From Schmidtea polychroa (Eukaryota), in the NCBI GenBank assembly GCA_044892525.1, contig JBJFYX010000274.1:1-64000 (forward strand): 64,000 nucleotides of DNA. The letters are read 5' to 3'. How positions within the stretch are numbered: the first letter of the stretch is position 1; each line of letters begins with the position of its first letter. Under the pieces are notes generated by a model. That model did no database searches and was not told where the DNA came from. It saw only the letters and a program-made list of their open reading frames with translations. The translations under genes were made by a program, and so were the position numbers. Of this stretch, positions 1 through 57,683 are shown piece by piece.

Positions 1-1452
1 AGAACACACCCATTACTCAGGGTAGTAAAAAGTCAATGGCCTATATTATTTACGATCACAGACCATTATGGAGATACACCGCTGCACAAACTTTTAAAGG
101 TCGGGAATAATGAGCAAATACTGGAAACGATCGAAGCATTTCGCGACTGTAACATTTCGACGGATCAAGAAAACAACCAAGGTTACACTCCACTAATGAT
201 AGCAGCCAATCGGGATAAAGCTAAAGATATTATTATCGCATTACTTGAAACTGGGTCAAAGATAACCACACAAGATCACAACCAGAAAAATGCACTACAT
301 CATGCAATCGAAGGGAAAAGTACGGAAGCCTTCATAATCTTAGTAGATCTATTATCGTACGAGGATAATAGGGAGATAGGAAACATGTATGACGGGCTAT
401 TAACTGCAATCAAAGAGAAATTAATAACAATTACTGGATTACTAATTGCATGGAGGAACCCGATCAAAAACGATTATATGGTAGATATAAACGAAACATT
501 TACCAAAGGAGAAAACACCTTGATGAGAGAAGCGATGAGAGGACATCACCTATTCGAAATTCCAAATCAACTACTACAACGTGGCATAAAGTTTTCAAAT
601 CACAAAGACGAACAACTAATCAGAAAACGAATTACCAACTTCGAAAAAGCTATATCTCAATTTACCGATAAAGTACAAGTAAAATTTTGGGAAACCGTGA
701 GTGTATTATATATGATGGAAAATATGAATAACATTCGAGAAACTTACCTAAGTATTATTCAAGTTCTAACGGCAGAGGAACGCATTAACAGTTCGAACAA
801 GAAAAAGATAAAAATCAAGAAAATAACAGCAAGGGAGTCTGAGAAACGAGTCAATCAAATAATAAGCGATATAGCAACAACAAGTAAACCAAAGATAATA
901 AACTCCGACCAAGAGATAGTAGTACGTAAGGCTAAAGAAGTATTCTTGGAAGAAATGCAAGATCTATCCGATGAAGCGATACTAGCAAAAATAACAAAAA
1001 CAGTACACACCTACGCAAGAGACCAGACCACAAATCTAGACATAGGAAAAATAAAAACATTTATACCACTAGCATTCACCTTACCAACAAAAGATTCAAG
1101 AACACCATTACAACAAGCCATTTTAGCAGCAAAAGAAAACAGAGCAATAACCATCATAAGAATTCTTAGAGACTTCGGAGAAGAATCTAATGCAAAAAAT
1201 GAACAAGGAGAAACAGCAATGATGTATGCAGCAATAACAAAGATACACCCGAAAACCTTACATATACTACATCAATCAGGTTCGAGACTTGACGAAATAT
1301 CAAACGAAGGAAATTCTACCATGGATTGGGCAACAATACAACCAAACTTGGAAATGATTAGATTCATTTGTAAAAATGCTACAAGAACTGAGGTAGAAAA
1401 TATCTGTAAAACACGTCACAGTTCCAATGGAACACGATACGGAAGAGCTTAG
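1..1452 (+). CDS. Ankyrin-repeat protein, 5'-partial (frame open from base 1); continues via a frameshift near 1410 into the next ORF
   Basis: Repeats GDTPLHKLL, GYTPLMIAA, QKNALHHAI, GENTLMREA, SRTPLQQAI, GETAMMYAA, GNSTMDWAT. No stop in frame 1 from position 1 to 1450. Confidence 0.85.
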   Translation, partial: RTHPLLRVVKSQWPILFTITDHYGDTPLHKLLKVGNNEQILETIEAFRDCNISTDQENNQGYTPLMIAANRDKAKDIIIALLETGSKITTQDHNQKNALHHAIEGKSTEAFIILVDLLSYEDNREIGNMYDGLLTAIKEKLITITGLLIAWRNPIKNDYMVDINETFTKGENTLMREAMRGHHLFEIPNQLLQRGIKFSNHKDEQLIRKRITNFEKAISQFTDKVQVKFWETVSVLYMMENMNNIRETYLSIIQVLTAEERINSSNKKKIKIKKITARESEKRVNQIISDIATTSKPKIINSDQEIVVRKAKEVFLEEMQDLSDEAILAKITKTVHTYARDQTTNLDIGKIKTFIPLAFTLPTKDSRTPLQQAILAAKENRAITIIRILRDFGEESNAKNEQGETAMMYAAITKIHPKTLHILHQSGSRLDEISNEGNSTMDWATIQPNLEMIRFICKNATRTEVENICKTRHSSNGTRYGRA

Positions 1453-1457
1453 AAGCC

Positions 1458-3053
1458 ATGAAGTTATTGCTAACATGGAAAATACCGCAAAGCAATAAAT
1501 ATGCAATAAATATAAATGAGTTCTACGAAAAGGGAGAAAATGCTATGGTTAAAAATATACTAACAAAAGGAGGAACTCCAAAAATCATAATGATCGTATT
1601 AAACAGGGAAGACCTCAAATTCACGCAGAATCTAAACGAACAAAAGCGAATCGGAAAACATCGTCGGATACAATTAAGAGAATTAGTAAAAGAATGGAAT
1701 AGAAAGAGACATGCAGCAACAGGCAGAAAGGAGTTCGAATTCGAAGCAAAATTAGCAAGAAACAGAGTGCTAACGGCATACCGCAGATTGTTGAATGATA
1801 TAAATGTCGAGGACGACATTTTAAACGATAGCGGGGGAGATAAAGACGATAAAGACGACGATAATAATGAAAAAGGTCGAAACGGGAATAAAGAGAAAGA
1901 GAAATCAGAGGAGAATAATCAAGAAAATAACGACGCGAGTATGAAAAAAGAGGAAAATAACCCGGGAAACCGAATGAAGCAAGAAGAAAAGACGAATAGT
2001 GGAAAACAGAGGGTATGTCTACTTTTTACCAACAAAGAAATGGAGACAAATATGATGATAATGATACTCGTATTAACAATGGTGGAAATGATAACAGCCC
2101 AGGGAGGAATGAGAACGATAAAAGAAGCCAAAGAAACGGAAAATAAGGACAACAAAGAGGAAGAACTAAAACAAGAAAAGAAAAAACAAGTACAAGAGCA
2201 GCAATGGGATCTAAAAGAAGAATGGGATTTAAAAGAAAGGTGTATATTAGGAAGATGTATGTCTAGAGCTTATCAGAGACTAGTGTTAAAAAATGAAGAT
2301 GCAGAACCAATAACGGAAGTGGGAATACAAGAAGCGTACCAACATCGAAACGGGAAGAAGATAACAAAAGTCAAATGGAAAGAGGTACACCTGAGTAAAG
2401 GAGGTGAAATAGTGATAACACAGCTTCAACCAAGAAAAGAGCACAAAGTGTGTATTTCAAGGCTAGGACCAGGAGAAAATTGTCTACAATATGTAACGCA
2501 ACAACAACCACCAAAGGAATATACGGTCTGTATCCTGAGAAACGGTCCAGAAAGAGAATGTCGACGATACCCTGGGAAGAGAAGGAGGAAAAGAAAATTC
2601 AATGATGAAAAAGATGAGCAAGGAAAACGCAAGAAAACCGTTGAGAAATATCAGGACAATTATGTGTCAGAGGAAGAGATGAAAAAAATACAAAAGATGG
2701 CAAAGGAAGGTATGAACGAGGAAATAGCAAGAATACGAGGAATGATAAAAGGAAATGGCAAAGACGGTAATCTAAAAAGCACAGAGGCAATATCAACAAT
2801 AACGAACAAGGAAAAAGCGGAAATTATAAGCGTAAAACAGATGATGTGGATCAGCGGCATAATAATAGCAGGGGCATTTTTAATCATAACGGGGGGAACA
2901 ATAAAAATAATCAAAGATAGACAACATCGCGGGGAATTAGAAATGACCCGAATCAGAAATTTTCAGCATCGAGTAAAACGACCAAATAATATCAAGCAGG
3001 AACAGTGGGTGGAGGCCTGGAATGCTCAGCGCCCTCCAAACTCACGTATATAG
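1458..3053 (+). CDS. C-terminal ankyrin repeats, charged linker, then a membrane-protein module (hydrophobic segment 2052-2100, Cys-repeat loop, polybasic site, TM 2841-2900, tail ending SRI)
   Basis: Frame is open from 1410 and reads WNTIRKSLEAMKLLL and INEFYEKGENAM (ankyrin-like). Downstream ATG at 2040 precedes MMIMILVLTMVEMITAQ. Duplicated VCIxRxGPxxxC motif; KRRRKRK; WISGIIIAGAFLIITGG. Confidence 0.75.
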   Translation: MKLLLTWKIPQSNKYAININEFYEKGENAMVKNILTKGGTPKIIMIVLNREDLKFTQNLNEQKRIGKHRRIQLRELVKEWNRKRHAATGRKEFEFEAKLARNRVLTAYRRLLNDINVEDDILNDSGGDKDDKDDDNNEKGRNGNKEKEKSEENNQENNDASMKKEENNPGNRMKQEEKTNSGKQRVCLLFTNKEMETNMMIMILVLTMVEMITAQGGMRTIKEAKETENKDNKEEELKQEKKKQVQEQQWDLKEEWDLKERCILGRCMSRAYQRLVLKNEDAEPITEVGIQEAYQHRNGKKITKVKWKEVHLSKGGEIVITQLQPRKEHKVCISRLGPGENCLQYVTQQQPPKEYTVCILRNGPERECRRYPGKRRRKRKFNDEKDEQGKRKKTVEKYQDNYVSEEEMKKIQKMAKEGMNEEIARIRGMIKGNGKDGNLKSTEAISTITNKEKAEIISVKQMMWISGIIIAGAFLIITGGTIKIIKDRQHRGELEMTRIRNFQHRVKRPNNIKQEQWVEAWNAQRPPNSRI

Positions 3054-3221
3054 AAAGGATTATGACTGTATATAGATTGTAAAAAGTAAGTAGATAATAT
3101 TTATTTATATAACAGTATGATATATTTTTATATAACCGCGGTATCAATATTATATAATGATGGGGATAAATAATATAAAAATAAAATTGGATAAGGGTTG
3201 AAAAGTATATATAAATTAAGA

Positions 3222-3581
3222 ATGGAGCGAATAGGCGAGGAAGTAAATCACAGTACGACAACCGAAGAGATGTGGAAACAACAATGTGCAATGTTAACTC
3301 AAGTAATTTCAAATTTACAAGAACAAGGACTGGCTGTACAAAGAAGCTTAGTCGAAAGTTTAAATAAAGGCTTCGGCTATGTAAGAATAATCGAAGACCA
3401 ACGAAGAAAAATAGAACAAATGCAGCGAGAGATAGACCGAATATCACTATACAGCCAGGTGCAAGAAGAGGAGTTAATGAGAATCGCTGAAGAGATGGAG
3501 CGAGAAGAGATGGAAGACTGGTCAGACTGGCTAACCAGCAGGGAAGAGGGCGGACAAGAGGCCGACTCTTCCAGCCAATAA
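3222..3581 (+). CDS. Small coiled-coil protein with acidic C-terminus, unknown function
   Basis: First ATG at 3222 (the track starts at TTG 3198). Heptad-like helices; codon bias matches neighbouring ORFs. Confidence 0.7.
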   Translation: MERIGEEVNHSTTTEEMWKQQCAMLTQVISNLQEQGLAVQRSLVESLNKGFGYVRIIEDQRRKIEQMQREIDRISLYSQVQEEELMRIAEEMEREEMEDWSDWLTSREEGGQEADSSSQ

Positions 3582-3671
3582 ATATAACCTAAAACAAAAA
3601 ATGTAAATAACTGTAAATAAAAATACGAAACTGTACCAGTAACGAATATATGTATATATATAATTATAGAA

Positions 3672-5060
3672 ATGGATAAGCAACAACGAGAAGAATTCAA
3701 AGAGATCGTCGAACAAGTCAGAAAGTCCACCACAATTCGAATACACAACCACGTAACGTGTGGAATATGCAAGAGCTTATTAAAAGAACCTCACCAAACC
3801 AGATGCGGATGTCGAATGTGCAAAGAATGTGTAGAGGAGATAATAAAGAAGGGACCACAATGGTGCCCAGTATGTAAAGAAACCATGATAACAAGTTTGG
3901 GAGATACAAACGAAGATAAAGCAGCTGTGAAAGATATGTTAAATGCAAATTTAGGATGTAAAAACACCCCGTGCAATTGGCGAGGAGTGATATGGGGAGT
4001 GAAGCAACATATAGAGAAGTGTGAGTATAAAATCAGTCAATGCGAACGTTGCCAGGAAGAGATTAAAGCAAAGGAAGAGGAAGAGCATCAAAGTCGATGC
4101 GTAGAAAGGTTAGAAAAATGTGAATATTGCGGAGAGACCGATACCCGAAGAAAATTAACTAGTCAACATCATAATTTACAAGAGGAAAAAGTATGCGCGG
4201 AATTCAGAGGAGAATGTCCCAATAAATGCGATAAATCTGGAGTAATAAAACTCGCTCAACATCTCAGAGAATGTGAAAGGAAAAAGATAACGTGTGTGCT
4301 AGGAAAATGGGGATGTCAGAAACAATTACACCGAGGAGAATTACCCCAACATCTAGCAGAAAACGTATCAACACACGCGGAAATATGGTCAACGGTATTA
4401 CAAGAAAACGAAAGGAAAACCGAAAACTTAGAAAAAGAAATGATCTCGCTAAAAGCGTTGGTAAAAGAGCTATTGCTAGAAAGAGAAGCATTCGAAGAGG
4501 CAAGAACAAGTACAAAGATACAGACAGATCTAGTGGAAACTAGCAACATTATGGTGAAAGAACTACATCAAAAAGTAAGCGAATTGAACCTCAACGAATT
4601 AATACCAACGGCTCCATACATATGGAAAATAACGGGAGTAAAAGAGAAGATGCAGAGAGCGAGAAATGGGAAGGATACAACATTACTAAGTCCAGCTTTC
4701 TACTCATGGAAAAACGGGTATAAAATGAAAATGAAAGCATACCCCAACGGGGACGGAAGTGCATACGGAACGCATTTCTCAGTATTCTTCTTGATGTGTA
4801 AAGGGCTATACGACGAGTTAATAGAATGGCCATTCAAAGCAAAAATAGACCTCGCGATGATGAACCACCAAAGTATACGTGAACAAAGTTTCCATACAGC
4901 AGGAAACCTCGTATGTTACCAAAGGCCCCTGGAAGAAGAAGGACCAGCAACCGGAGCACCGAATTTCATCCTACAGCGGAAAGTAGAAGACATGACGAGA
5001 AACGACACTATATACATAAAAATAGCGGTGAGGCGAGACGGGAAGAGTAGGACGGAGTAG
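3672..5060 (+). CDS. TRAF: TNF receptor-associated factor (TRAF2/3/5-type): RING, five TRAF Zn fingers, coiled coil, MATH domain; intronless
   Basis: RING CGIC...CGCRMCKEC...CPVC; fingers such as CKNTPCNW...HIEKC and CVLGKWGC...HLAENVSTH; MATH motifs YIWKI, SPAFY...GYKM, NGDGSAYGTHFSVFF, EWPF, NDTIYIKIAV. Confidence 0.96.
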   Translation: MDKQQREEFKEIVEQVRKSTTIRIHNHVTCGICKSLLKEPHQTRCGCRMCKECVEEIIKKGPQWCPVCKETMITSLGDTNEDKAAVKDMLNANLGCKNTPCNWRGVIWGVKQHIEKCEYKISQCERCQEEIKAKEEEEHQSRCVERLEKCEYCGETDTRRKLTSQHHNLQEEKVCAEFRGECPNKCDKSGVIKLAQHLRECERKKITCVLGKWGCQKQLHRGELPQHLAENVSTHAEIWSTVLQENERKTENLEKEMISLKALVKELLLEREAFEEARTSTKIQTDLVETSNIMVKELHQKVSELNLNELIPTAPYIWKITGVKEKMQRARNGKDTTLLSPAFYSWKNGYKMKMKAYPNGDGSAYGTHFSVFFLMCKGLYDELIEWPFKAKIDLAMMNHQSIREQSFHTAGNLVCYQRPLEEEGPATGAPNFILQRKVEDMTRNDTIYIKIAVRRDGKSRTE

Positions 5061-5279
5061 AGAGACGAATAATTTTGTATATACTAATTATAAATATCGA
5101 TGTATATACCCAGTAAAATATTATATAGTAGTGTAGAAAAATTCCCCCAAATCTACTAAAGGTAAACTTAAGCGTAAAACTCCTAAAACAACCCCTATAA
5201 CGAATTGTAACAATAAATAAATAATAAAACAGATATAAGCGTACGACGTTGAGTTAATGATATCGTTATTCAGACAAAG

Positions 5280-6317
5280 ATGACTCAAGATCAAACGGAA
5301 GCCCCAAATAACGAAATAAACATCAGTAAAATACACAGGGAAAGATGGGCCAAAGTGATGGCACAATTATCCAATCAAACACGAAATTACCTCGAAGAAG
5401 CGAGAGAATGGGAAAACCACCAGTTCCAGTGGTTAGTGCAGAATTTACGGGCGGAGGCCGAGGCCTGCAAACGGGCCGCCAAATGGTCAGCACTAGAAAA
5501 TACCAGGCAAGAGGCACATGGGCATTATCTGAAGCAACTGGTACAAGAGTCAAGAAAAAGACTCACTGATGAGAATAAGAAGCGGGAAATAGAAAAACAA
5601 AAGGAGGAAAGGAAGACCTGTCAACTATTAGCAGAAGCCAGAAAATGGAAAACCCAACATCGAGAAATCAAAAAAGAAATGAGAGAATTGCCGCAGAGAT
5701 TGGAATACGAGAGTGAGCAAGGGAAATGGGAAGAAAATCTGGATCAGAGAGAAGATCTAAGAAGGCTCCGAAAAATCGCCGCTAGAAGTCAAACCTGGCA
5801 GACCAAGGCCATGGAATTTGAAAGGCATCTGGCCATGAAACTGTCTATGAAGGAACAGGAGAATACCGCCATGGAAGAGATGATCCTGCAACAGTCAGGT
5901 AGAATCGTTGAACTTGTGAATAAGGTGGCAGACCTCGAAAGAGACAATAACGGCTACAAAGGGGCACTAGAACAAAGAAATATAGTGCTAGCCGGTAAAA
6001 ACAAAAAATTAGAAAATGAGAGGAAGATGTATGATGAGAATATCAAGAACCTAGAAAAGGAGATCAAAAAATGGGAAAACGGCGAAAAAGCGGAGGAGTT
6101 AGAAAAACAGATAGAAGTAAGAGATGATGAAGCCAGGTATCTGACATACCTGTTGGACGAGGAACTCAACGTGTCAAGAGCGCTAAGAGACGAAGTCCAA
6201 GAGCTTAGAGCACAGATTCCCCGGTACTACATCCCATTCGATCCCATCGCACTCCAACTACAAGCGTCGATAGAAAGCGATGAAGGATATGTAGGTCAGG
6301 AAGAGACCTTTGTATAA
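5280..6317 (+). CDS. Long coiled-coil protein ending in ETFV
   Basis: 345 aa open frame, E/K/L/Q-rich heptads, same codon bias as the cassette. Confidence 0.8.
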   Translation: MTQDQTEAPNNEINISKIHRERWAKVMAQLSNQTRNYLEEAREWENHQFQWLVQNLRAEAEACKRAAKWSALENTRQEAHGHYLKQLVQESRKRLTDENKKREIEKQKEERKTCQLLAEARKWKTQHREIKKEMRELPQRLEYESEQGKWEENLDQREDLRRLRKIAARSQTWQTKAMEFERHLAMKLSMKEQENTAMEEMILQQSGRIVELVNKVADLERDNNGYKGALEQRNIVLAGKNKKLENERKMYDENIKNLEKEIKKWENGEKAEELEKQIEVRDDEARYLTYLLDEELNVSRALRDEVQELRAQIPRYYIPFDPIALQLQASIESDEGYVGQEETFV

Positions 6318-6490
6318 AGATAAATAGAAAAGATAAAAAATATAAAAATCGGGACCTATATCCCAACAAAAAAATTAATAGTACGATAAAAGTATTGATG
6401 GGACTGTAACCCTGATTATATAAAATTACCTATAAATGTATAAATATAAGTCGCACTGTAGCGCAAATATTAATTGTACATATTACAGAA

Positions 6491-7180
6491 ATGAAAATAG
6501 AGGAAATATTCGCCACAACTGAGCTAGAAGAGGGAGAAATTGAAGTAGAAGAAGTGGAAAGGAAGAAAACCATCAAGGAGGAATTACAAGAGGAGAGACA
6601 AGAGAACGAAAGATTGGCAGAGAGATGGAGAGATAATCGAAAAATAATTAAAGTATTGAAAAAAGAATATACCTTGTTAAAAGAAGCAAAGAAAGAAGTA
6701 GAGGAAGAAAATGAATGGCTCCTCGAGCAAAGAAAACGCGGAAGAAATTGGAAGAAGATTGCAGAAGAATTATGGCAGGAAAGGGCCAGTAGAAAGGCAG
6801 ACGAAGTCATCAACGATTATTGGAGAACAGAGGCACGAAAACATCAAGAAAGCCTGAAAGAATTACGACTTCAATTACATCAAAAACAAAAGGAGTATGA
6901 GATAATGAGGAAACTGAACAGCAAATATCAAGAAATAGAGGACGAGGAAGACGAGGAAAGAGGAAATGATTTCTTACAAGTACTAAACCATAAAAACCTA
7001 GAAAGAGCAACACAGGAAATAAAGGAGTTAAAAGGAAAAATAAAGTTCCTAGAGCAACAGATAGATGAAAGAGATAAACAACTAGAAGTACTGCCAGAAT
7101 TGAGAAAGCGGGTAATAAAAGCGGAAACGGAAGTGATGAGAGCGTCTGAGAAAGCCCGTAAAAAGAAATCCCGATCATAA
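6491..7180 (+). CDS. Coiled-coil protein with basic C-terminus (KARKKKSRS, NLS-like)
   Basis: 229 aa open frame, highly charged heptad pattern. Confidence 0.8.
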   Translation: MKIEEIFATTELEEGEIEVEEVERKKTIKEELQEERQENERLAERWRDNRKIIKVLKKEYTLLKEAKKEVEEENEWLLEQRKRGRNWKKIAEELWQERASRKADEVINDYWRTEARKHQESLKELRLQLHQKQKEYEIMRKLNSKYQEIEDEEDEERGNDFLQVLNHKNLERATQEIKELKGKIKFLEQQIDERDKQLEVLPELRKRVIKAETEVMRASEKARKKKSRS

Positions 7181-7234
7181 TTAAAAAGGGATAATTGATG
7201 TAAATAAATGTATATAAAATATTCGTATAGTAGT

Positions 7235-7879
7235 ATGTGGTCCGGAGCAACCCTGATAACCTTAATGATGATCACCATAAACGGAATACCCATGTGGCAG
7301 TCAACCCCAACACGTTGGAAGAGTCCCAAGGAGCAACAAGATCCAATAATCAAACTAAACAACGAAAGAAAACTCTATAACAACATCCTGAAACCCTGTG
7401 GGAACAAAGCCGTCTGGCAAAAGATCCAAATGAAACTCAATCTCCAAACCCAAAGAATCGAACAACTCGAAACTCTTCTACAAGAACAAACCACCCAACA
7501 ATCTCTAAAAGAAACCCTTACGAAGAAAGAAACCAAAGAAAGTCAAGTCCTGTTCTATGTTACAATTGGTGAAACCATCCTCATCTGCGCGCTAGTCATC
7601 TGGAAAGCGTATGATAGCTATCGAGCATGGAAAAGAAACAAACCTCAAGTCGAGAAACCCAGAAGGAAGAACCCACGACCAAGAAACAAGCCTACACGAA
7701 CAGTACATTTTCAAGCATCAGACCAATCTAACCAAACGCGAAAAAATCTATCCTCTAACCAGACACCTGCCACAACCCAACTCTCCACGGCAACAACGTC
7801 AACCAGCCATTCAATTCAGAAATCCCAGAGATTCCCGAATAACAATTTACCAAGACAAGAACGACAATCAGAACTTTGA
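7235..7879 (+). CDS. Small type I membrane protein: signal peptide, short coiled-coil ectodomain, TM, basic and S/T-rich cytoplasmic tail
   Basis: MWSGATLITLMMITING signal-like N-terminus (ATG 7235; track start 7208); TM VLFYVTIGETILICALVIW at 7547-7603; basic juxtamembrane stretch. Confidence 0.75.
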   Translation: MWSGATLITLMMITINGIPMWQSTPTRWKSPKEQQDPIIKLNNERKLYNNILKPCGNKAVWQKIQMKLNLQTQRIEQLETLLQEQTTQQSLKETLTKKETKESQVLFYVTIGETILICALVIWKAYDSYRAWKRNKPQVEKPRRKNPRPRNKPTRTVHFQASDQSNQTRKNLSSNQTPATTQLSTATTSTSHSIQKSQRFPNNNLPRQERQSEL

Positions 7880-9852
7880 GATCCTGTGACTACCCATAAC
7901 TTTGTGTATATGAATCCGGTCACCATAAGTGGCCACTGCTTGCTTTTATTTGTCTTTTATCTGTTAATTAAAGTATTAGTCAGTTAATTTAAATTTTTAT
8001 TTTTTTGTGTGAATGTTGAATTGTGAGATCAGATTAGATACCAAAGGAAGTATGATGTGAGTGGATAATATTATGTGAATTGCGGGACGCAATTTTAACG
8101 GGCCCCGGAGTGATTTGTTGGGCTAAGTTTTGAAGTAGAGAAAAACTGGGTTAAATCGGGAAACGAGCCGCGAAAAATATAAACGAAATATAATAAAAAT
8201 AAATCCCCATCAAACCTCAATAATAAATAAGGAAACAATAAAATACCCATAAAAAGAAATAAGAATAAATGATAAATAAATAAAGCCCTTAAGAATTAGA
8301 AATAGGACATAAGAGAAATGAGTTAAAGCACAATAAATAAAGTAAAAATAGAATAAGCAAAAAGGTAAGAGAAAATAAACGAGAAATTAAAGCAATAAAT
8401 AAAAAATAAAAATATCTTTAAGTTTAATTAAAACAAAAATTGCATTATGATAAAGTAGCAGTGAACCCGCAGAAAAAATAGGAGAAAAATAAGAAAAATA
8501 GGAAAAATAAATAAAATAATAATAAGAAATAAGTTAAGTTATTAAAAGCTAATATATTATAATAAAAACATAAAATAATAATAAATATTAAAAATTACAA
8601 CCTAACTAAGTCCTGATTGGATGGAAAATAGTATATAAGAAACGCTAAAAATCAGTAGAGTACCACTTTAATCAAAAACTCTACAGGTTTCAAGATTTTA
8701 TTCACAAACTACTACAGAGGACTAATCCAAAGAAGACTAATTTGAATTGAGGAAGAAACATACAGCGAACTATTTACAGCATTATACAGGAAAACCTTAG
8801 CCGATTTAACCCAGTTATTTAATCTCAAGGTATGGTAGGATATTTTTAGGTTTGATTTTATGATAGATATGATGGAATTTAATAAATATTTATAATTGAT
8901 ATTAAATTTTGTAAATAACAAGGAAAATTTGTTCAATAAATTTATTTAAAAACAGAACCTGCCTTTCTTCATGGAGCCGACGACTGTACCTTCTGATGAT
9001 TTCAAGTATGATGCCAAATGGAGAGAGTAGCCCCGAGGAATATTATGATATGTAGCCAAGAAATGTTGCGCGGATATTGGATCAGGAGCAAGCGATAATA
9101 GTGGATACGATGCCAATACTGTAAGGGAATATTGGGTTGGAAAATGAGAAAGCATCATACTTGGAACTCAGACGATATGGTCGCCGGTAATTTGATTCAT
9201 TTACTTGATTATTATTTGTTCCATTTTTATTATTTATATCTGAAATTTGTTTTTAAATTGCTGAATGCGAAAGAGTCGACTGGTCCCTCATGATCGTCCG
9301 AGAATGGCGGCAGAGATGATTGCCTTCTTGGGTGTGTTATGAGGGGTGTAGAGGCTCAGTAGGTTGGGATAACAGGCTGAAGGATGGAATTTCTTCACCG
9401 AGCTCGCATCGTTCTTAGCAAGTTCCATAGCTTCAATAAGTCACATCGATACTTCTAATAATAGCGGAGGAGATTTAAGTTGAGAGCCGAAGACAGTTCG
9501 GAGTTGAGATTGACAATTTCATCAACGTATTAAGAATCCACATAGTTCGGCGAAATTTCTTCATAACGGTCAACCCGTCAGTCGGAATAGTGAACGAGAA
9601 TGTTGTCGTCAAAGCTTGGAGTATAAATCCAGTAAATTTCGCAGAGTACTGTTTTCCTCGGTATACTAGCAGAATCTGAACCGTCGATATATTAGCGATG
9701 ACACCCGTCGACGAATGCACTTTTAAGTTAAGTGATTAGCTTCGAATCGCTGATAAACATCGTTTTTCCTGAAAAGAATGTAAATAAGTAGGAGAGGTTA
9801 TCAGATTACTCACGGAGAAATGACAGAAATCGCGGACAGATCTATCGATTGG

Positions 9853-10746
9853 TCACTGACTGAATTGAGGAACCACTGTAGGAGTTATCAGTGACTTGAG
9901 AAATGAATTGCCGGCAGATGATAACTGATCGAATTGAATGACCAACGAAGCCAGATAACACCGATAATAAATTTCCACGAGGAATAATCTAATTGACGCG
10001 TGGGTAGACCTTGTCTTGTACTGGCTGCGTAATGATCGAGGCAGATTAAAAATTCTAGCTTAGTTAATGCTCATCGGATTACTATGTACAATTCCAGGGT
10101 GATACTTGTGAACACTTAGTGATAATTCCAATATATTATGTAACTGTACACACCTACACACTCCATCGTGAATCGTCTCCCAGTAGGATAGCAGAGTACC
10201 CTTGGCATTGGAATTTGGCCGTGATGTCAAAATTACATAGTAACCTGCTCGTAATTCCCTGAGTTGGTAGGCTGGTGTGTATGAACAACAGAGCAGATCG
10301 TCTCCACTGCGATTTAATACGACGTCGAATTTTCTCCACTATCACATAGAAATAGACACACATGAAAGCTCAAGGTGGAGATACTCCAACAATGCATACC
10401 GACTCAGTTGATAAATATAAGAATAATGCACACACCTACAGGTAGGCGTCACTAGGGCGACAGAAGTAGCGCGATTTTTAAAAGAATTTTTGGAATTTAA
10501 ATTATAATTAGCTAATAGTATATATTTAAAGTCCTTTATGTCAATTCGTAATAACAATGCGCCATAAGGAGAGATAAATTTTTCATGCGATTTAGCAATA
10601 CGAAGTAGGTGCAAATTAATAAACTGAAATCCCCAACGATCGGATGCTATTCTTTTCTAATGATTACGAACGTAAATATGTTTGACTATAGCAGCCGACT
10701 AAAATGCAATGGGTATGTGTTATCCGACCCGAGGTAAATTTCTCAT
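9853..10746 (-). pseudogene. Decayed antisense ORF (~298 codons, 6 in-frame stops, no frameshift) inside the putative LTR
   Basis: One frame runs from ATG 10746 through the track ORF 10342-10614 to 9853. Internal repeat CRCVxxxxIxxLS occurs twice, 94 codons apart. Confidence 0.4.
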
Positions 10747-11119
10747 CGAATAAGTTAAAATCGAGGATTCCCCGTTTTTCTTCTCTCCATCACCTTGAAT
10801 CAATAAATCGATCGAAATGTTGTTTCCTAAATGAGTGAATGAGGAGTGTTGAATTGTGTGAAAACAAGTTGTTTTATTGTATGCCGTGGCGTGGTATGAT
10901 GAGTGAAATCTTTGAGTTTAGTGTCTCGATAGAATTTGGAACTAGATATATTTTAACCGTTAAAACGGATTACTAGAGAAAACTTAGCTGAGACATTAAA
11001 AACATCAAATTATGAATCAAAACACTTCGTGAGAATTTCAGAATTATAACCAATAAATTCTTGTACTGGATACCTTAATAAGTATCGCAATTCGGTTTGA
11101 ACTATGATTAACTTTCTAG

Positions 11120-11881
11120 ATGACAACACCATCCAACAACGCCCAAGAACTTCGTCCGTGTTTCTCTTGCGCTGACAAGAACTCGGACATCTCTCAACTT
11201 CATTTATATATAGGGGCCCTCAAGAAGAGGATAGATCTTTATGAAGGAACGTGGTTCTCCCCGCCACAGATGAAGGAGGAAAAGGCTAAGATCCTCAGGT
11301 TAGAACATTGTAGGGACAGCCTACTAGAAGAAAGCCGATGCCAAAAGCTCACAATAAAAGCACAATCAGAAGCCCTCCATAAGGTCTACATGGAGGCAGA
11401 AATAGCAAAGCGGGTACGCGAATATCCCGTGTTGGATGGATCGAATGTCTTTCCTCTCCATCACCAGTCATCTACAACTCCCACCTCAGCTTGTCGAGGG
11501 CACGGTTCCCATCTACCGCCCATCCCAGCCCCAGTGCTGTCAGGATACTTACCTATGAAAGGGGGTCCATCTGACCCAATTCTGGCCCCGGTCCTAGTGG
11601 CACCCACAGTATCTACTACTGTTGGAGGAAATCCGCCATCACGCAAACGCAAACACCCAACTAGGGCCGAGAAGACTAAGAAACGAAGAAATGCAATGAA
11701 GGCGCTCGAGGCTTCTTTGTTTGCAGCGCAGACGACAATAGCAGAGATATCCACCACTCATACGATTCCCTCGAAAGAAGTTTTCCATATCATTCCAGCT
11801 AACGGCATCAAGTTTATCTCGGATTGTAGATTGCCGGTAGACATCGACGAGTTAATTGCCGACGGAGAAAACTTTAACTAA
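11120..11881 (+). CDS. Unknown protein: CxxC, short coiled coil, Pro-rich middle, bipartite NLS-like RKRK...KKRR
   Basis: 253 aa intact ORF immediately preceded by a splice-acceptor-like TTAACTTTCTAG. Confidence 0.65.
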   Translation: MTTPSNNAQELRPCFSCADKNSDISQLHLYIGALKKRIDLYEGTWFSPPQMKEEKAKILRLEHCRDSLLEESRCQKLTIKAQSEALHKVYMEAEIAKRVREYPVLDGSNVFPLHHQSSTTPTSACRGHGSHLPPIPAPVLSGYLPMKGGPSDPILAPVLVAPTVSTTVGGNPPSRKRKHPTRAEKTKKRRNAMKALEASLFAAQTTIAEISTTHTIPSKEVFHIIPANGIKFISDCRLPVDIDELIADGENFN

Positions 11882-12406
11882 AACGGTTTGCGAGTGATCT
11901 TGAATGTATTTCGAGTCGTGAATGGACTGATAAACTTCGTTAATAATGTGCATCCTAACTGTTCGTATGATATTGTATTAATAAGTGTGATGATGTTTGT
12001 TTTATTTTCATTTCGGTATTAATATATTTTGTCTATTTGGTTCTGTTTTATAAAGTTTTTCATATGTTTGGTTTTGAGAATAAATGATTTAGTGTTGTGG
12101 AAGGAAAGCTAGTAGGCTAACGGTCGTTCCCTTGGACCAGGATCGAACCAAGACTGAAGCATGAATAAGGGTAAGTCCTTCTAAGGCACCAGTGAACCTG
12201 AACCGCGAGCGGGCTATCAGTAGTCCTAAGATAGGGGCTCACCTGTTAGTCAGCTCCGACCCGTATGGGCACTACCAACGTGGAACATCACCACGGGCTC
12301 ATGCGTGGGAATATGTAAATGATCATTTGGCGTATGTATGGGAGGTGTCTGAGCTAACCAATGCGGTCGGTATGATAATGGTTGTGTAAGTTTTCTTCTC
12401 CCTCAC

Positions 12407-12547
12407 ATGCCAACACTAATGCAGAAGATCCATGATCGCCGATATCTGATACAAGACCAAAGTTGGAAAATGCTTCAAAGAAATGTTGAAAAGATGAAGG
12501 AATTTCTTAAAGAATGGGGATGTGAGATGTTTTCAGCTGAGAATTAA
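12407..12547 (+). CDS. Orphan terminal coding fragment MPTLMQKIHDRRYLIQDQSWKMLQRNVEKMKEFLKEWGCEMFSAEN
   Basis: 46 open codons, protein-like, followed by AATAAA. A GTAAGT...CTAAT...CAG intron-like stretch occupies 12386-12424. Origin (host or element) is unresolved. Confidence 0.3.
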   Translation: MPTLMQKIHDRRYLIQDQSWKMLQRNVEKMKEFLKEWGCEMFSAEN

Positions 12548-13082
12548 ATATTTCAATGATTTATTAAGATATTTTAAATGATAAATAAAGGACTATAAAA
12601 ATATTTTTCAAAATAATTTTTAAATTGAATTTTTTAAATTGAAAAATTAAATAAGCTTTTTGAAAGAAGTTTTATTAGTAAATAATTTTTAAATAAATAT
12701 ATTTTAAATATCGAAATTTTAGTAAACGGTTTTCAAAATATTTTATTCAACGCTGAAAATTTGTTTGAAAATTATACAATATTTCATTAAATAAATACTT
12801 GGAATTATGACGTTAACCTTTTAACCGGATTTAAAAAATAATTTAGATGTTTTAGCAGCTTCTAATAAAAATTATTAAATGTTTGTCTGTTTTAAAATAT
12901 TTTATTTTTGAGATAAAGACAAATACAAATAACAATTACAAAATATTCATAAAATCAGATTAAAATCAGCACATTAAAAATTGCAATCACTATTATAAGC
13001 AATTCTTTGTCCAAACTTGTGAATTTAAAAGTGTAAGGTCAATTATTTTAAGAAAAATTTCATGAAAAAAATTTTCCTAAAA

Positions 13083-36744: not shown

Positions 36745-39700
36745 ATGTTATAAATAGAAAGTTTAAGAGGATAATTATAGTACAGATAAAAACGACTAAA
36801 AGTATATCATCGAGCAGACGGGATCCCTACAAGGATGCTTTCGATTTTATTCAAATCTTTTAAAATCTTATATCGATTTTGACAGAAGTACTACTATGTA
36901 TTCAAATCTATTTAGAATATCATAGTCATGTAATACAATAAATTTTCAATCCAACAATGACTCAGACCGTTGAGCTTGCTCTTGCTTGTTGCACAGAAGG
37001 AATCGAAGGTGCAATTTGTCTTTGTTTTTGCATGATGAATAAATTTCCTCCATTACTTTGATTGCGCGCTCGCCGCATTGATTACTTCAGGGTATCTGTA
37101 GTATGGATGGCTCTCACTTCCAGTGATTTTTCAAAGAGCTTAAAGCCTTTTTGTATGGATTCAGTATTTCAGCCAAGTTATTAAAGTCGTTTTCGTTGTA
37201 CAGTTGGTCTGTAAACCAATGGTCTGCCCAGCCATACGATATAAATCGACATACTCTCTGCTGAACTGTCCTTGTTGAAGGAATTAAAATGAAGGCCAGG
37301 ATCGCTAGTATAGCTCTGGAGTTCCACCTCGCATTGCTGATGTTGGGTATTTTTTGGAACTTGATCAATAGAAAATGTCCCTTTTCCTCAAAAAATCGGA
37401 AAACTCGAGAAAAATTTCATATTATCTCTCCAGCCTGATGTTTCGAGAATTACTTCTGTTTCGTTATCAAACTGTGTTTTCAGTTGTTCATACTCCTTTA
37501 ACAGTTGAGATATAAATGGATATTCGATGTTTGGCGATTGTGTTTTACTTCCAAGTTCTTCATCCATCACCAAACGGAGGATTCTATCTAATACATGGTG
37601 TTGACAACTGATAAACTGAGGTTTGTTGATGCGTTTCTCTGTGAACATTCGTTGCAATATTACAACACAATTCTTTTTCCAGTCCTAACGTTGGTGGTAT
37701 CTGCAACAATCATCTGTATTGAATTCCATAGGTGAAATTCATCGAGGACTTTAGAAATTCATCCAGCAATAGTTAAAGCCCTACCATTCATCAAGCCAAG
37801 GACATTCAATTTGATTTCTCTTCTTTCATTTTTAAGGACGACCACTTGATAATCCATTCTGTCGATGTGCTTGCCATCAAAGTATAAGGACCAACTTTCC
37901 ATATGCAACTTTTCAATCATTTCTTCCTTCAGCTTGATTGCCTCTTTGATTGTTGACTTGTAAATAGTTGATTGACATGGAATTGGGATGTCAATGCCTT
38001 CACGAGCCAATTGCTTGCATATGTTAGCAGCTTTGTTAGCTGATACTCTTGAGGACGTCACTATGTTGACTGCAATTTTGTTTTTATGATGTTTATGCTT
38101 GGTGTAGGAGTTGTCTCATCTTCTTCTTCATTGTTTTCATATTCACTGTCGTCGGCCTCAGAGTCAGAATCACTAAAACCAGGATAGTAAGATGATGAGT
38201 TGGATGACTCATTAGAAAGTTTTTGTCTTTTAGAGAGATGGATCGTTTCTTTACTGGCCGCTTGGCCTGTAGACTATCCAACTGTTCCTTTGCTTTCCAC
38301 TTGGAGATGGTACAATCGCTTGTCCTCGGAAGATAACCATGTTCCATCCACTTTAGTAATATCAAAGATTTCATCAAGGGGTTCGTAGCTTCCCCGCTTG
38401 ACACATTCATCATAACATTTCAGTATTTTATCAAGCTTTGCTCGTATAACTTGATCAGATACATGGGGATAATTCAGTTTATTCTTCTACAATTTGGTGA
38501 CTTCTTTGGAAATTTCCGCTTTTCGCTCTTTTCTTTCTTTGATTTTTGGTCCAAGGAAATGGTAGCGTCCGATAATTTGCTTTTGGAGAGGCATTCTGCA
38601 CTTTTCTTCCAGTGAATATTCTTCCAAAGGGACCATTCTTTTTCTTTTATGAGAGTCTTCAAATTTTACCAGATTATTGGTCCAGGCATCCTTGTTCTTC
38701 TGAATGCTACTATTGCTAGGCTTGTACGACGCCATGTGTTGCTTCTGTAATAACTATATAATTAGACTATTTGACTTTAAAAAAAAATTAATTTTCTGTG
38801 TCATAAATCGATGAACTTTTATTAGAAAACATTGAAAACATGTTCAAGTCCTCTCGGTTGTAAAAAAAGGTCACCCCGCAATTCAAATTACGTTTCGCCA
38901 TTTATTTAATCTTGTTACTGCTACTACTAATACGTGTGGCTTCCTGCAAATCATTTAAAACTTGTATAGATTAGAAGTGTTTAGAACTTTAGAACAATTT
39001 GGAAAATAACAGAATATTTTAGAAAACTTTAGAACATTCTAGAACAATGTATAGCTCAATATATAGCTCAATATATAGAATTAATATATAGCTGCTCCTC
39101 AGTGGCGTATCTAGGGTTCACGGCGCCCGGGGCAAAACTTAAAATTGCGCCCCTCTCCACGTGAATTTTTTCTTTTCCTTATTATTGGTATATTATTTTT
39201 GCACTAAAGTGACATTTCTTTTTTAAGAAAAAAAAATTATTTAAAAAAAATCAAAAATTTTCACTCTTTAAAATTGATTTGCAGCAGTTTTAAAAAAAAT
39301 TAATTTAATTTTGCAACAAGTTAGTTTTAAACTTTATTTATTGTAATAATTTACAAACAAATTTTTCATGCTTTAACACTTGCGAACTTGTCAATGACAT
39401 CATCAAAGTTAATTTTGTTCACAGTGTTTTTCGCAATACTTAATAATGCCAAATTATTTAAACGTTCTTCACTCATTGTTGCTCGAAGATATGACAAAAT
39501 TAATTTTAATTTGCTAAAGGAACGCTCGCATGTTGAAACAGAAATACCAATTGTCAAAAGAATTTGCAATGAAATTCTTAAATTTGGGAAAACATCTTCA
39601 CCATAAGATATTAAAAATTTTAAAAGTTCTATAGGTGATTTTGGAATTTCATCTTTTCGAGCATTAAGAAGCATTTTACAGTCAGTAACTTCATTGCATA

Positions 39701-42700
39701 GTTCGTTTTCATCAATATCTGAATTGTAAAATTTTCCCAAATTTGAACATTTTTCTTTTAATTTAGCAGGATCATGGCAATTTAGAAAATTTTCAGTGTC
39801 AAGGAAATATCCAAAATTTTCGTTCAATGAATTAAGGCGAGTAAATCGAGTTTTTAATTCTTGAATTAATCTATCAACTGAGCATTTCAACACACGATCT
39901 AACTCTTGTTCAGCAGTCAAACCAGAATCAGTCATTTTTTCACCTAATCTAATTTTTATACGTCGCACTCTTTTCTTTATTTCAACGCCCAATTCAAAAC
40001 ACTTTTTTTTACCTGCTTCAATTGATTGAATGCATAGATCTTCAAGAAATTGCTGCATATGTATGCTTAATCCTTGTAAATCATCGGAGGCATCTTTAAA
40101 ATTAATTTTTGGATCTTGCATTCGTTTTTGTACACGATCAATTTTCTCGAGAACGTGATGCCAAAAATTTATCAAAACCAGAAAATTAAAATTCAATATA
40201 TTTTGCAATAAATTGTATGATTCGCTTCTTGTGTCAGATGTTTGATTGAAATCATCAGAAAGATCTTCAATTAATTTCAAAAGATTATCGATTCCAATAA
40301 AAATTGCTTTTACAGCTTCTGCTCGTGCACTCCATCGTGTTGTTGATTCACGTTTTACAGTCAAAGGAATGACATCGGTTAATTTTTGCCAACGATTGGT
40401 TGATCTTGAAAAAAATAAATAAATAGCATTATGGGATTAGTTTGAACAGAATGTAATCCTGCAAGATTTAAACTATGATTATCGCAGTTAATAAACACTG
40501 CGCGAGGGTTCAATTTGGTAATTCTTTGTTGCAATCCAGAAACATGACCAGACATAACTGCCGCATTATCATAACATTGCGATCGACAGTCCGAGAGTTG
40601 TAATCCATCAGTTTGTAATAATTTGAGTATAGTATTTTTAAGAGCTTCGGCATCTTTTTCAGCTAGCTCAATAAATCCCAGAAATGATTCCTTAATTTCC
40701 ACTGTTTTTTTATCAAAATCTATTTCAACGTGACGAATAACTTCTGAAAATTGTTCACGATGTTGTAAATCTGGAGTAGAATCAAATATCATGCCAAAGT
40801 ATTTGCTCTTTTTTAATATTTTCAATCAAAACATTTCGAACTATTGAAGCTAAAAGGTGAATAAACTCATTTTGTATGCCTGGTGATAAATAAGATGTTG
40901 TTCCTGGATGTAAACGAGAATGTTCCATGTGACTTGCCAAAAGTGGATCATATTGCGCAATCAATTGTAAGAGACCCAGAAAATTACCTGGATTGCCTTC
41001 TGTATTCAACAAATTTTCATTATAACCACGTAATGCTAAATTATGAAATGCTAAGAATTTTATGCATGAAAGAAATCTTTTTAAAATTTCTCTCCATCGA
41101 TCTTTTTCCAACAATATTTGAGCTTGAACTTCCATATCGATTCCAGCACCTTGAGACAATCTTCGTTCAGTTTCTTTCCATGTTGTAAAATTCTGACGGT
41201 GTATAATATTATTTTCATGATCATTTACTCTTTCTGAATGCTTAAAATCTCTAAAACCAGCCGGTGAAGAAAATGCAGTTTTACAAAAATCATTATAAAA
41301 TAACAAACAACAAAAGCAGAAAAGTGTTTCTTTATGAGGCGAATAAATTAACCAAGATCGATTAACATATATACCGTTTGCCAACTTCTTCTTAAACCAT
41401 GATGATGTAATTGAACGTCCATTATGCACTGTAAAGCTTCCTTTATTATTTTGAAATAAATTCGGGCCACGTAAAATGACTTCAGTTCTTAGTTTTTGTG
41501 AAACTATTGGACTGAATGAATGAAAACTTTCTTGAAATTCCAAATATCCAAAATCATTGAACAAAAACAGATTCGGAATATTTTCTGAAATTGTTGAAAG
41601 ACATGATCTATTGTTGGATTCAGTCATTTCATAATCAAAATCCGACTCTTCATTGTTTTGTGAGGCATCAAAATCAAAAAATTCATAATCTGACTGCGGC
41701 ATATGTTTGTCTTCTTTAATATCCTCTATCTGGTCATTTTCTTCAACTTTTTCCTTTTTTAAATAATTTTGCAACATTTGACTTGACTTTTTAGCTTCAT
41801 TTCGGAATATTCTGGCCTTTTTACGATTTTGTGCGCCACTTAATTTCGGTTTCGGCATCTTTGATATTCTAAAGTTTGAAAGTTTTTTCAAATAATTTTG
41901 AGCTTAACAAATAATTCTATAAATCTTACGATTGAGTTCTGGATATAACTCAAATTTCATGTATTTTGGAAAGGCTTTGAAATATATAAACAAAGTTCAC
42001 CATAAAATTTAAATTTAATTTTAGTACTATTTAAATTAAATTTAAATATTATGGTGAACTTTGTTTATATATTTCAAATAATCAAAATTCGTTATTTTAA
42101 TGTTGGTTAAATTTCAAAATCGAAAATCTTTAAATAAAGTTTAGGTTTCAAAAATCAATTTGGCGCCCCTAAAATCGTGGCGCCCGGGGCAAATGCCCCG
42201 CTTGCCCGGCCCTAGATACGCTACTGATATGATTCATATGGCAAAGTACGCAGGGCCGTGTCTGACCGGCGTTCATTACGTGTGCCGCACGCAGGCGGCA
42301 AAATTAAAAGGCGGCCTGACGACCAGAAAAACAAAAAAAAATTAAAAAGCAAAAAAACAATGTTAATATATAGTCATAGTCATATATAATCGAAGTAAAT
42401 TGTCAAATAGTTGAGTGTTGTTGTCAATTCGTCAATTGTAATCATTATCATTGCGCTCTATGGCGTACTAAATTTTTTTTAGCTGCACCTATCAAAGAAT
42501 ATTATTCTGTGCGCTTATTGGCGAGCGTATGCTGGCGCAGTGGTCGCATAGAACTCCGTGATGTAAGAATAAGGAGAGATGAACACTCTTTTTAACCCAC
42601 GATGAACAGAGTACATCTCTCTTTATTCTAACTGATTTTAACCTTACTGAGTTCTACGGGTTCTACGCGCCAGCATGCGATCACATGTGCTCGGCATAGG

Positions 42701-55497: not shown

Positions 55498-57683
55498 ATG
55501 AATAAGGTCATGAGTAAACCATTGAAGTCTTCTCGACAAAAAGAAAAGAAATTAAGTAAAAAAATTAAAAATCTTACTAAAGAAGGACTTTTAGAAGAAG
55601 GAATTAATTATTTCGATTCGAATTTAATGACTGGAAGTGATGTTGCAGAGAATAAAGGTTTAATCTATTTTCATTATCTTAATTAAATTTCAACACATTT
55701 AGAAAATGAAAATTTAAATGTATCTATGGATGTAGAAAACTGTGATATTATTAATACTGACGTCAATAAAGAAGAAACAGCCTGTACAAAATCTGTGAAT
55801 GGTATGCAAAATTTATGTTAAATTTTAATATAATTATTATTATAGAGAGTTCAAAATATAATGTCGTTATTTTAAATTTACCACTTGATGCCAGTACTGA
55901 AGAATTGAATAATTTTTTGTCAAAGCGAGGCATTCCAGTAAATGCATTTAGCATAGAAAACGGTAAATATGCCGTTATTGAGTCAAGCGATATCAATTCA
56001 CACGAGAAAATCAAAAACAGTCTTACCAAGAAATCGTTAGTAAATTCTGAAAACATGATTGTTTCGAAATTGTCGGGAAATTCTCAAAAATTAGAGACAT
56101 TGTGCCAAAGTAATGCCATACTCAACAGATCCATAATAACTGTCAAGAATGTTAACAGTAAAACCGTTATTGTAATTATTATTATTTAAAATGAAATTGT
56201 TAATTATATTATCAATGCTGGTTCGACGAAATCATATTAATAATTTCAAAAAATAATATTTCTCTAAATTCTATTTACGTGTATGTTATCATGCCTTTAT
56301 TCATGATCACTTCACTTTTTTAATTCAAATTATTGAAACTCCTGTTATGCACAAAATTTAAATCTAGGCTTGTTTATATTTTATATTATTTACAAAAAAT
56401 CATTAATTATTTGATTTTAAAAATAGGATGATATTTTATGTTTAATACCAAGTGATTTTGAAATAAAAAGTCACCAGGGGCCCAAGAAGCATATGGCAGT
56501 GATAGAATTTATTAATCCATTGAATACAGATGCTGTCATAGACAAATTGAACAGTACCATTCTCCATGGTAATAAACTAGTTGCGGATTTTAAGCATAAA
56601 TTAGGTAGATCTCTATATTTTGCTAAATCTAACCTCTTAATCCCGGTTTGCAGTGAAGGAAAGCAATGCTGAGAAAATGTTTACCCTTCGAATAGGAAAT
56701 CTTTCTGAAGCAACAAGTTATGAAACCATAAAAAATTTGGAATTAAATAGTTCAAAAATGCATTTGTCCAAAAAGTTTGGAAAGCGAAATTGTTTTCTAA
56801 CTTTCAAGTCCAACGAAGACTTAACGGATGCATATCAAACGCTTTTGAATAAAGAAATCGACGGCACCAAAATAACAGTGAAACTCGTTGAATTTAAAAC
56901 CGACATCGTATCGGAAGAGGATTTTGATTTGACGAAATTGCATATCACAAATCTGCCGTTTACTTGTACAAAAGAGGAATTGGAAAAAGAATTTGAAATG
57001 GCGAAGTCTTTAAAATTTCCGTTGACTAATAGTGGAAAAAGCAAAGGGTATAAGATGAGATATAAGATGATCATATTGATAATGTAAAATATCTAGATGT
57101 TGCTATTTGTCATTCGATTCCAAAGAATTGGCGGGATTAGCGATGGAAGGGTTTAAGGATAAAATAATCAATGGAAGAAAGATCAGGTGCCAATATATGA
57201 AAAAAAATCAAGACTTGGTGGTAAAAAAACAAAAACCGAAAAAAGAAAGAGAGCCAAAGAAAAAACTGGAAGGAAATGTCGTCACTTTGTTCAATCTTCC
57301 GAAATCTGTCACAGTTGATGAAATCAAAGCCAAATTCGATCATGTCAAATTTGTTCATATTATCAAGAAAGATAATATTTTCAAAGGGTATGTAACAAAG
57401 ATTTTCATGATGATTGTATAAAGGGAATTGTTTAGAATTGCAGAGGTACATTTTATTAAAGCGGATTTTGCTAAAGCTGCAATCGACGCTCCCGGGTTTA
57501 AAATGAGTGGCAGAGAAATTAGAAAGGAATTAAAAGGTGGCAAATGGAGAGATCGCGTGGTAACGAATACGAAATTTGTAAGATGATATTTGATTATTAA
57601 TTTGATTTATATATATATCTTCATTTCTTTAGAAGCCAAAAGATAAGGAAGACATATCTGAAGTTGAAGATAGTGATGAATAA
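55498..57683 (+). CDS. Multi-RRM (about five RRMs) nucleolin-like RNA-binding protein, 8 exons
   Basis: Phase-compatible short GT-AG introns join VVILNLP, VKNVNSKTVI|DDIL, LRIGNLS...NCFLTF, LHITNLPF...KG|CCYLSF and VTLFNLP...KG|IAEVHF; basic N-terminus, acidic C-terminus; stop at 57681-57683. Confidence 0.8.

Follow-up and report, generated by a model that had tools for sequence, protein, structure and literature searches.

Complex retroviruses of the HIV type splice their RNA to multiple acceptors, and in the adenovirus major late unit, which belongs to a DNA virus, the poly(A) sites L1–L5 have been demonstrated. In foamy viruses, the splice donor lies in the long terminal repeat (LTR) upstream of the poly(A) signal (PMC3694450; this and all other papers are cited from excerpts). 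The Burro elements, or GYPSM1, are giant gypsy-like LTR elements of planarians (PMC6431247). They carry regulators of apoptosis and ubiquitin, and PMC13465017 cites a report that one Burro1 accessory open reading frame (ORF) has a protective role in planarian stem cells. Here, we describe a stretch of 64,000 nucleotides (nt) from Schmidtea polychroa (assembly GCA_044892525.1, contig JBJFYX010000274.1, positions 1 to 64,000; hereafter the window), which holds, on the + strand, the 3' third of a Burro-like gypsy element of ~31 kb. Splicing of some kind very probably takes place at the AGs that precede its accessory ORFs, and the sequence evidence leans to cis-splicing over spliced leader (SL) trans-splicing.

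These ORFs sit 20–30 kb from the sole promoter, which raises the question of how they are expressed. The excerpt of PMC6431247 does not address the expression of accessory ORFs in Burro. Our literature searches turned up no account of splicing in Burro; transcript structure may be described in the 2026 Burro1 paper, the 2018 genome paper, or their supplements.

A Burro-Like Gypsy Element

The window contains the 3' cassette and the LTR of a Burro-like gypsy element. The element is multi-copy, with 40 scored copies at 93–100% and 134 matches to one 23-letter motif. Three full copies (A, B, and C) carry at both ends a 4.3-kb LTR that matches window positions 8116–12415, and the LTR-to-LTR span is ~31 kb in copies A and C. 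Pfam domains occur in the order gag, CCHC knuckles, Monjiviricetes-type fusion protein, protease, reverse transcriptase, RNase H, integrase, and ankyrin repeats. In the frames of copy C, gag (retrotrans_gag, CCHC), the fusion glycoprotein, and the protease-to-integrase block follow each other in a single reading direction, and the polyprotein frame is interrupted somewhere in each of the three full copies. A RING ORF is located behind the 5' LTR. The polyprotein is followed by accessory ORFs at 3222, 3672 (TRAF-like by Pfam), 5280, 6491, and 7235, and a sixth, at 11120, lies within the LTR.

A length of more than 30 kb, long LTRs, a CCHC gag, a viral fusion protein between gag and the protease-to-integrase block, ankyrin repeats, MATH/TRAF cargo, and accessory ORFs are all shared with Burro/GYPSM1 as described in PMC6431247. 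Unlike these, the window family encodes TRAF in a downstream accessory ORF, and the frames scanned gave no match to BIR, Bcl-2, or dUTPase. The traits of Burro1/GYPSM1 proper, MATH within the polyprotein and a BIR ORF, are both missing from the scanned frames of the window family and are both present in a second family. This Burro1-like family (4791-aa MATH polyprotein, BIR ORF) was fetched for a held-out test of the acceptor pattern.

Candidate Splice Acceptors at Accessory ORFs

The first-pass annotation of the window had held that nearly every cassette ORF starts right after an acceptor-like AG, and the seven AG/ATG contexts that it named are all in place. Two of them need another description. 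Position 2040 is no ORF start, being Met 195 of the frame 1458–3053, the tail of the gag-pol polyprotein, and the ORF at 11120 belongs to the LTR and not to the cassette. The nine held-out starts comprise eight accessory starts of the second family that have their own ATG and the RING start of the window family. An AG lies 0–3 nt upstream of the ATG at 7/7 named sites and 9/9 held-out starts, or 16/16 in total. Four control sets span 6–33%: 94/288 internal in-frame ATGs, 43/186 non-coding ATGs in the elements, 10/38 other long-ORF starts, and 1/17 host tubulin or Ras starts. The maximum among 20,000 shuffles was 12/16. The two cassettes are homologous and share the same order, with 26–36% protein identity for the main matches, so the AG pattern reflects long maintenance, not independent origin.

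The Ras loci were mainly copies of one Rab1-like gene, which left just 6 of the 28 examined to serve as host starts. Among the top Ras matches (L204–L228), the N-terminal half of this gene recurs in at least 20 dispersed copies. Two Bcl-2 loci were included among the controls; neither these nor two single-ORF gypsy families have a cassette, and two further stretches, candidates for additional families, yielded LTR pieces only. Bcl-2-like ORFs at L119 and L123 adjoin, by eye, Polinton-like ATPase/integrase ORFs and belong to multi-copy families.

An A-rich Kozak context combined with selective reading could in principle have produced the pattern by chance. The earlier reader picked 7235 over 7208 and included the internal ATG 2040, and if the rule is relaxed to YAG within 6 nt, the seven named sites by themselves do not differ significantly from host starts (5/7 vs 6/17, p = 0.12). 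Given that all nine held-out starts comply, that only one host start does so at 0–3 nt, and that shuffles stay at or below 12/16, the chance reading is largely refuted already, and we regard it as extremely improbable. The Kozak explanation, which the first-pass annotation had raised as a partial one, fails on the same host count and on TAG-ATG, which places T at -3. The upstream ATG at 7208 is itself lost in other subfamilies.

The quality of the acceptors was judged against a host matrix built from myosin genes by spliced profile alignment. Of 153 introns, 102 were kept, these being short or well aligned on both sides, and three near-duplicate loci were dropped. At position -3, the kept introns have T 66, C 25, A 10, and G 1 times. 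The ATG-proximal AG is the top-scoring one among upstream AGs in 10/16 cases and is within the top two in 15/16 (p = 1.4e-7 vs 146 other AGs); its scores are slightly under those of true host acceptors (p = 0.07). The resemblance of the upstream tracts to host intron 3' ends, as had been suggested, is therefore borne out by ranks and scores. Across seven copies with 80–90% identity, the acceptor AG is retained in 39/42 site-copy pairs, compared with 144/196 for other spacer AGs. CAG and TAG are swapped at 6488, and the offset to the ATG shifts at 5273, 6488, and 11119 in other copies. TAG 11119 is retained even in LTRs that are merely 66–77% alike over ORF 11120–11881. By these sequence measures, the AGs are real, non-random, and conserved acceptors. 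The idea that they are 3' splice sites providing one mRNA per ORF thus stands on the controls, the held-out family, and conservation with turnover; its poly(A)-signal half does not.

The second family has no Met at the place equivalent to 2040. In the pol tail of a third, degraded family (L279), TAG-TA-ATG stands before a signal-like segment that lies ~500 residues short of the polyprotein C-terminus; this may be an analogue of 2040.

Predicted LTR Promoter, Leader, and Donor

Across subfamilies, the aligned LTRs share a reverse CCAAT, a TATA (8632), an initiator-like TCAGT (8652), a leader, and a donor; the promoter labels are those that we presume for these motifs. The donor equivalent to 8830 is found in 10/13 LTR stretches, and the leader is ATG-free in eight of those ten. 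In the other two, the ATG falls inside a short GT..AG segment. Such a segment of ~49 nt, which ends in a repeat of the first ~25 transcribed bases, occurs in most LTRs of the window family (seen at L018:9642, L022:3601, L167:6683, L169, L171, and L173) and is missing in the window copy (8662–8686) and copy A. L103 has no donor within 340 nt. Downstream of the donor, AATAAATTTATT at 8935 is present in 10/12 LTR stretches. Motif and conservation thus point to a promoter-proximal major donor after an AUG-free leader, and serial acceptors stand ahead of each ORF, as in a common-leader system.

Gag lies behind the LTR and RING ORFs. A strong acceptor is followed by 578 (window family) or 499 (second family) ATG-free nt before gag, and stretches of this kind were matched in 11 and 1 of 20,000 shuffles, respectively. 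In both families, an ATG-free open frame of ~105 codons runs ahead of the first gag Met (L014:3871-4191; L090:1228-1536). In the window family, this pre-gag open frame contains GTAAGT and TTTTCAG, 27 nt apart.

Two further LTR blocks are conserved. Window positions 9143–9406 stand out as conserved within a part of the LTR that otherwise varies and have GT after GTCGCCG in 6/7 copies; the inverted pair CCCTCATGA/TCATGAGGGG, present in most copies, suggests structured RNA. Rfam gave no match in 1–13000 at E ≤ 0.1. The other block, 12123–12415, is at the 3' end of the LTR and holds an invariant GG/GTAAG (7/7 copies).

Cis-Splicing and SL Trans-Splicing

Evidence on the type of splicing comes from the second LTR ORF of the second-family type. 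Its conserved coding region opens in phase 1 directly after YAG in 10/12 distinct copies. The boundary reads AG/TG in 8/12 copies, an in-frame stop is close upstream, and no in-frame upstream Met is present in 11/12. At the promoter of the same type, 9/12 distinct matches have a donor shortly past the initiator, and 7/9 leaders end in A before GT; among host donors, A at -1 amounts to 19%. These exon and leader counts were read off the output from related copies, with one weak unrelated match and the window-type ORFs excluded. A leader ending in A and an exon beginning with TG would form an AUG at the junction. In flatworms, the SL sequence terminates with ATG (PMC12582326), so an SL would leave the phase-1 exon out of frame, and cis-splicing would be needed at least there. 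A coding role for the ATG of the second-family leader was considered and dropped: it is in phase 1 in 5/7 counted cases, and two of these five contain a stop.

The accessory ORFs are most likely made by alternative cis-splicing of a common LTR leader, a reading that we hold with slightly more than even confidence. The proposal of the first-pass annotation that one LTR-driven transcript gives rise to monocistronic mRNAs is supported in that the acceptors point to a separate mRNA for each ORF; as to the mechanism, cis-splicing from the LTR leader is favored over SL addition.

In an operon-like arrangement, cleavage and polyadenylation would occur in each spacer and the downstream ORF would be recapped by the host SL at the AG, while the LTR donor would serve LTR-proximal exons only. 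SL trans-splicing is reported in Schmidtea (PMC12582326, PMC8629364), the spacers of 54–219 nt fit both the ≤300-nt operon rule of parasitic flatworms (PMC12582326) and the ~100-nt peak in Macrostomum (PMC8629364), and flatworm acceptors are often common to cis- and trans-splicing (PMC12582326). The cassette acceptors are also distant from the LTR donor, and AATAAA occurs in 9/11 spacers of the two families, 32–82 nt before the next ATG and beside UGUAHAUA pairs. Against this stand the lack of AATAAA enrichment, the inability of an SL AUG to open the phase-1 LTR exon, and the absence of an SL-like loose end among the matches listed. Acceptors are not without an upstream cis donor, as both families have conserved LTR donors, though these are at least 20 kb from the cassette. 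An SL AUG would be out of frame at 10/16 sites, which is about the chance level and a weak point. We consider this operon-like arrangement unlikely.

Intercistronic Spacers

Each spacer contains 1–8 ATGs. It had been stated that AATAAA occurs in most spacers, and 4/5 window spacers do contain it. AATAAA enrichment was rejected, as the counts equal those of dinucleotide shuffles in both families (6 vs 5.9, p = 0.56 in the window family; 7 vs 5.8, p = 0.35 in the second).

A different motif marks the spacers. TGTA[ACT]ATA is found 16 times in sense and once in antisense, and its 7-letter core reaches 12.9 per kb vs 0.6 in the host flank. The first copy lies 14–21 nt past the stop in 9/11 spacers, a number for which shuffles reach at most 3/11. 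Copies are often paired, 10–12 nt apart, and are maintained with A/T exchange at the free position. No copy occurs in the 200–360 nt downstream of the RING ORF, the LTR ORFs, or the last ORF of the second family, and behind 7879 there is just a 7-letter match. One version, TGTAAATA, holds what we take to be a forkhead-like core. The Pumilio motif is UGUAHAUA (PMC5580656) and is identical to the post-stop motif, which may be a Pumilio-type 3'-untranslated region element, with its function suggested by this identity. Planarian poly(A) sites are reported to be without UGUA (PMC5068929), so the post-stop motif is no host 3'-end signal, which is a further point against the SL operon. A role of UGUA as host poly(A) element was ruled out by the same report together with the 3' flanks of host tubulin genes (1 TGTAHAT in 18 flanks of 150 nt). 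Runs of 25–30 A soon after the post-stop motif at L092:740-770 and L279:6862-6887 may be relics of poly(A) or products of slippage.

TATA-like words are enriched in the window spacers (22 vs 11.7, p = 0.007), as expected if each spacer were a small internal promoter with AG-ATG as part of a start motif. The second family shows no such enrichment (4 vs 4.6), and spacers can be as short as 54 nt. The post-stop motif keeps to one strand (16 vs 1) and to a place set by the upstream stop, the YAG swaps and T-rich tracts match acceptors, and the phase-1 exon lacks its own AUG. Internal promoters are accordingly improbable.

RNA Contigs and Evidence Against a Common Leader

Contigs from five RNA-like runs and from one DNA-like set were compared with the element; the RNA status of the former is a guess, and contigs drop rare forms. 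Because parts cannot be ranked from contigs, their depth (e.g., the peak of run X6 at ~7870–8570) was left unused. Leader- or SL-extended N-termini were sought in protein searches, which gave no planarian relatives.

A number of observations weigh against cis-splicing of a common leader to these AGs. In the five RNA-like contig sets, the matches listed show no joint, loose end, or SL-like loose end at the named AGs, and one X1 contig (601 nt, depth 157) runs across 3220 unspliced, as is expected of genomic RNA or DNA. A genomic copy of the spliced junction at the TRAF acceptor 3669 gave 0 matches; RNA spliced from the LTR donor would be without the primer site, so no spliced DNA copy would be expected. 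Introns from the leader to the cassette would span ~20–25 kb, passing over many acceptors on the way, and the coding frames along this 20-kb route show no clear depletion of donor-like words (GTAAG 20 vs 26.8 ± 5.0). Copy C is without the 8830 donor in both LTRs and has only an upstream donor left. The phase-1 argument stems from the second-family LTR and is no proof for the distal cassette of the window, and the phase-1 exon could alternatively join the ORF just upstream of it. Among the acceptors, AG 2037 is weak (5th host percentile, rank 72/266 among AGs in 1–3050). Sites 2037, 3220, and second-family c6 have AAG, which makes up 10% of host acceptors, and low scores. AG 3220 is present in 29/30 copies and missing from the 67% copy L154, and the degraded third family retains 1/3 of the cassette/RING AGs. 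The weak contrast under the looser YAG rule counts here as well, and the host start set is small (n = 17) and mostly tubulins.

The unspliced contig over 3220 would also suit translation of the ORFs from unspliced RNA via reinitiation or internal entry, with the AGs being incidental. Unspliced genomic RNA is expected under every model, the spacers interpose 1–8 ATGs, and such translation does not predict the 16/16 AGs, their ranks, or their conservation. We regard it as very improbable.

A Model of Expression

Under cis-splicing of the common leader, transcription would start near the 5'-LTR equivalent of 8654, and a ~175-nt AUG-free leader would end at the donor equivalent to 8829/8830. One acceptor would then be chosen per transcript, from those of the LTR ORF, the RING ORF, gag-pol, and each cassette ORF in turn, so that the first AUG met would be that of the ORF itself. 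Gag-pol would use the acceptor 500–580 nt ahead of its first AUG, and the unspliced RNA would be the genome. With the donor upstream of the LTR AATAAA, 5'-LTR polyadenylation would also be restrained, as in foamy viruses. UGUAHAUA after each stop would act as a 3'-untranslated region element for Pumilio-type control, possibly alongside internal 3' ends. A wider scenario is tentative and, in our view, somewhat unlikely as a whole: the LTR leader would be spliced to at least eight acceptors over 25 kb (with the AUG completed at the junction in one family), Pumilio elements behind the cassette stops would place the cassette under host stem-cell translational control, and SL trans-splicing would possibly rescue downstream ORFs. 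If such rescue were true, this would be an LTR element with its own operon.

By analogy, the element may work like a complex retrovirus while being a Burro-like gypsy element. In the predicted layout, one major donor close to the cap would supply many acceptors, which recalls complex retroviruses, and foamy viruses in particular have a donor in the LTR before the poly(A) signal (PMC3694450). Unlike these, the element is of gypsy type, has putative splicing at eight or more acceptors each 0–3 nt from an AUG and predicted introns of more than 20 kb, and carries ORFs within a ~3.4-kb U5-like part and upstream of gag. Similar to the adenovirus major late unit, the element is predicted to splice a single leader to one acceptor after another, and internal 3' ends may occur; unlike in that unit, AATAAA is not enriched, and internal poly(A) use is putative. 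With its same-strand ORFs 54–219 nt apart, each behind an acceptor, the element resembles the SL-resolved operons of flatworms and nematodes (PMC12582326, PMC8629364), from which it differs in having an upstream cis donor, one exon incompatible with an AUG-ending SL, and no SL-like end among the matches listed. The ta-TRIMs of Echinococcus (PMC4558846) provide a flatworm case of LTR-initiated RNA spliced in cis, once to a former SL acceptor. They are small non-coding elements that splice into host genes, unlike the coding cassette described here.

With its donor and acceptors defined and its post-stop motif fixed in place, the expression model is testable. If true, it would represent complex-retrovirus-style gene expression in the gypsy lineage, or else a transposon that uses SL operon logic.

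Features of the Window

The coordinates are collected in Table 1.

Table 1. Annotated and predicted features of the Burro-like element in the window.
Positions	Strand	Feature	Remark
1–3053	+	3' part of gag-env-pol polyprotein with ankyrin repeats followed by signal-like and transmembrane segments in the C-terminal region; frame interrupted near 1452–1458 in window copy	Same stop reached in copies B and C
2035–2042	+	Weak AAG acceptor candidate and in-frame internal Met 2040 before hydrophobic segment; not an ORF start	
3067–3074	+	TGTATATA, Pumilio-element-like, 14 nt past polyprotein stop	
3218–3581	+	AAG acceptor candidate (G 3220) and ORF 3222–3581 (119 aa, homologous to second-family c1)	
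3602–3619	+	Tandem TGTAAATA pair, 21 and 31 nt past stop	
3667–5060	+	TAG acceptor candidate (G 3669) and TRAF-like ORF 3672–5060 (RING, MATH)	
5076–5108	+	Two TGTATATA, 16 and 41 nt past stop	
5271–6317	+	CAG acceptor candidate (G 5273; second AG abuts ATG) and ORF 5280–6317 (345 aa, charged, coiled-coil-like by eye)	
6486–7180	+	CAG acceptor candidate (G 6488; TAG in other subfamilies) and ORF 6491–7180 (229 aa)	
7199–7216	+	Tandem TGTAAATA/TGTATATA, 19 and 29 nt past stop	
7228–7879	+	TAGTAG acceptor candidates (G 7230, 7233) and ORF 7235–7879 (hydrophobic N-terminus, late hydrophobic segment)	
8116–12415	+	3' LTR, 4.3 kb	Matches both ends of three full copies
8616–8656	+	Predicted core promoter: reverse CCAAT 8616–8620, TATATAAG 8632–8639, initiator-like TCAGT 8652–8656	
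8654–8835	+	Predicted AUG-free leader exon and major splice donor AAG/GTATGG (intron from 8830)	Donor in 10/13 LTR stretches
8935–8940	+	Conserved AATAAA, predicted LTR poly(A) signal, 105 nt past donor	10/12 LTR stretches
11117–11881	+	TAG acceptor candidate (G 11119) and LTR-borne ORF 11120–11881 (253 aa)	
12168–12176	+	Second conserved donor-like site GG/GTAAG (intron from 12171)	GGGTAAG in 7/7 aligned copies

Outside the element, translations read by eye indicate broken hAT-like transposase frames at 39366–46811 and a multi-exon RRM-like host gene at 55763–57529.

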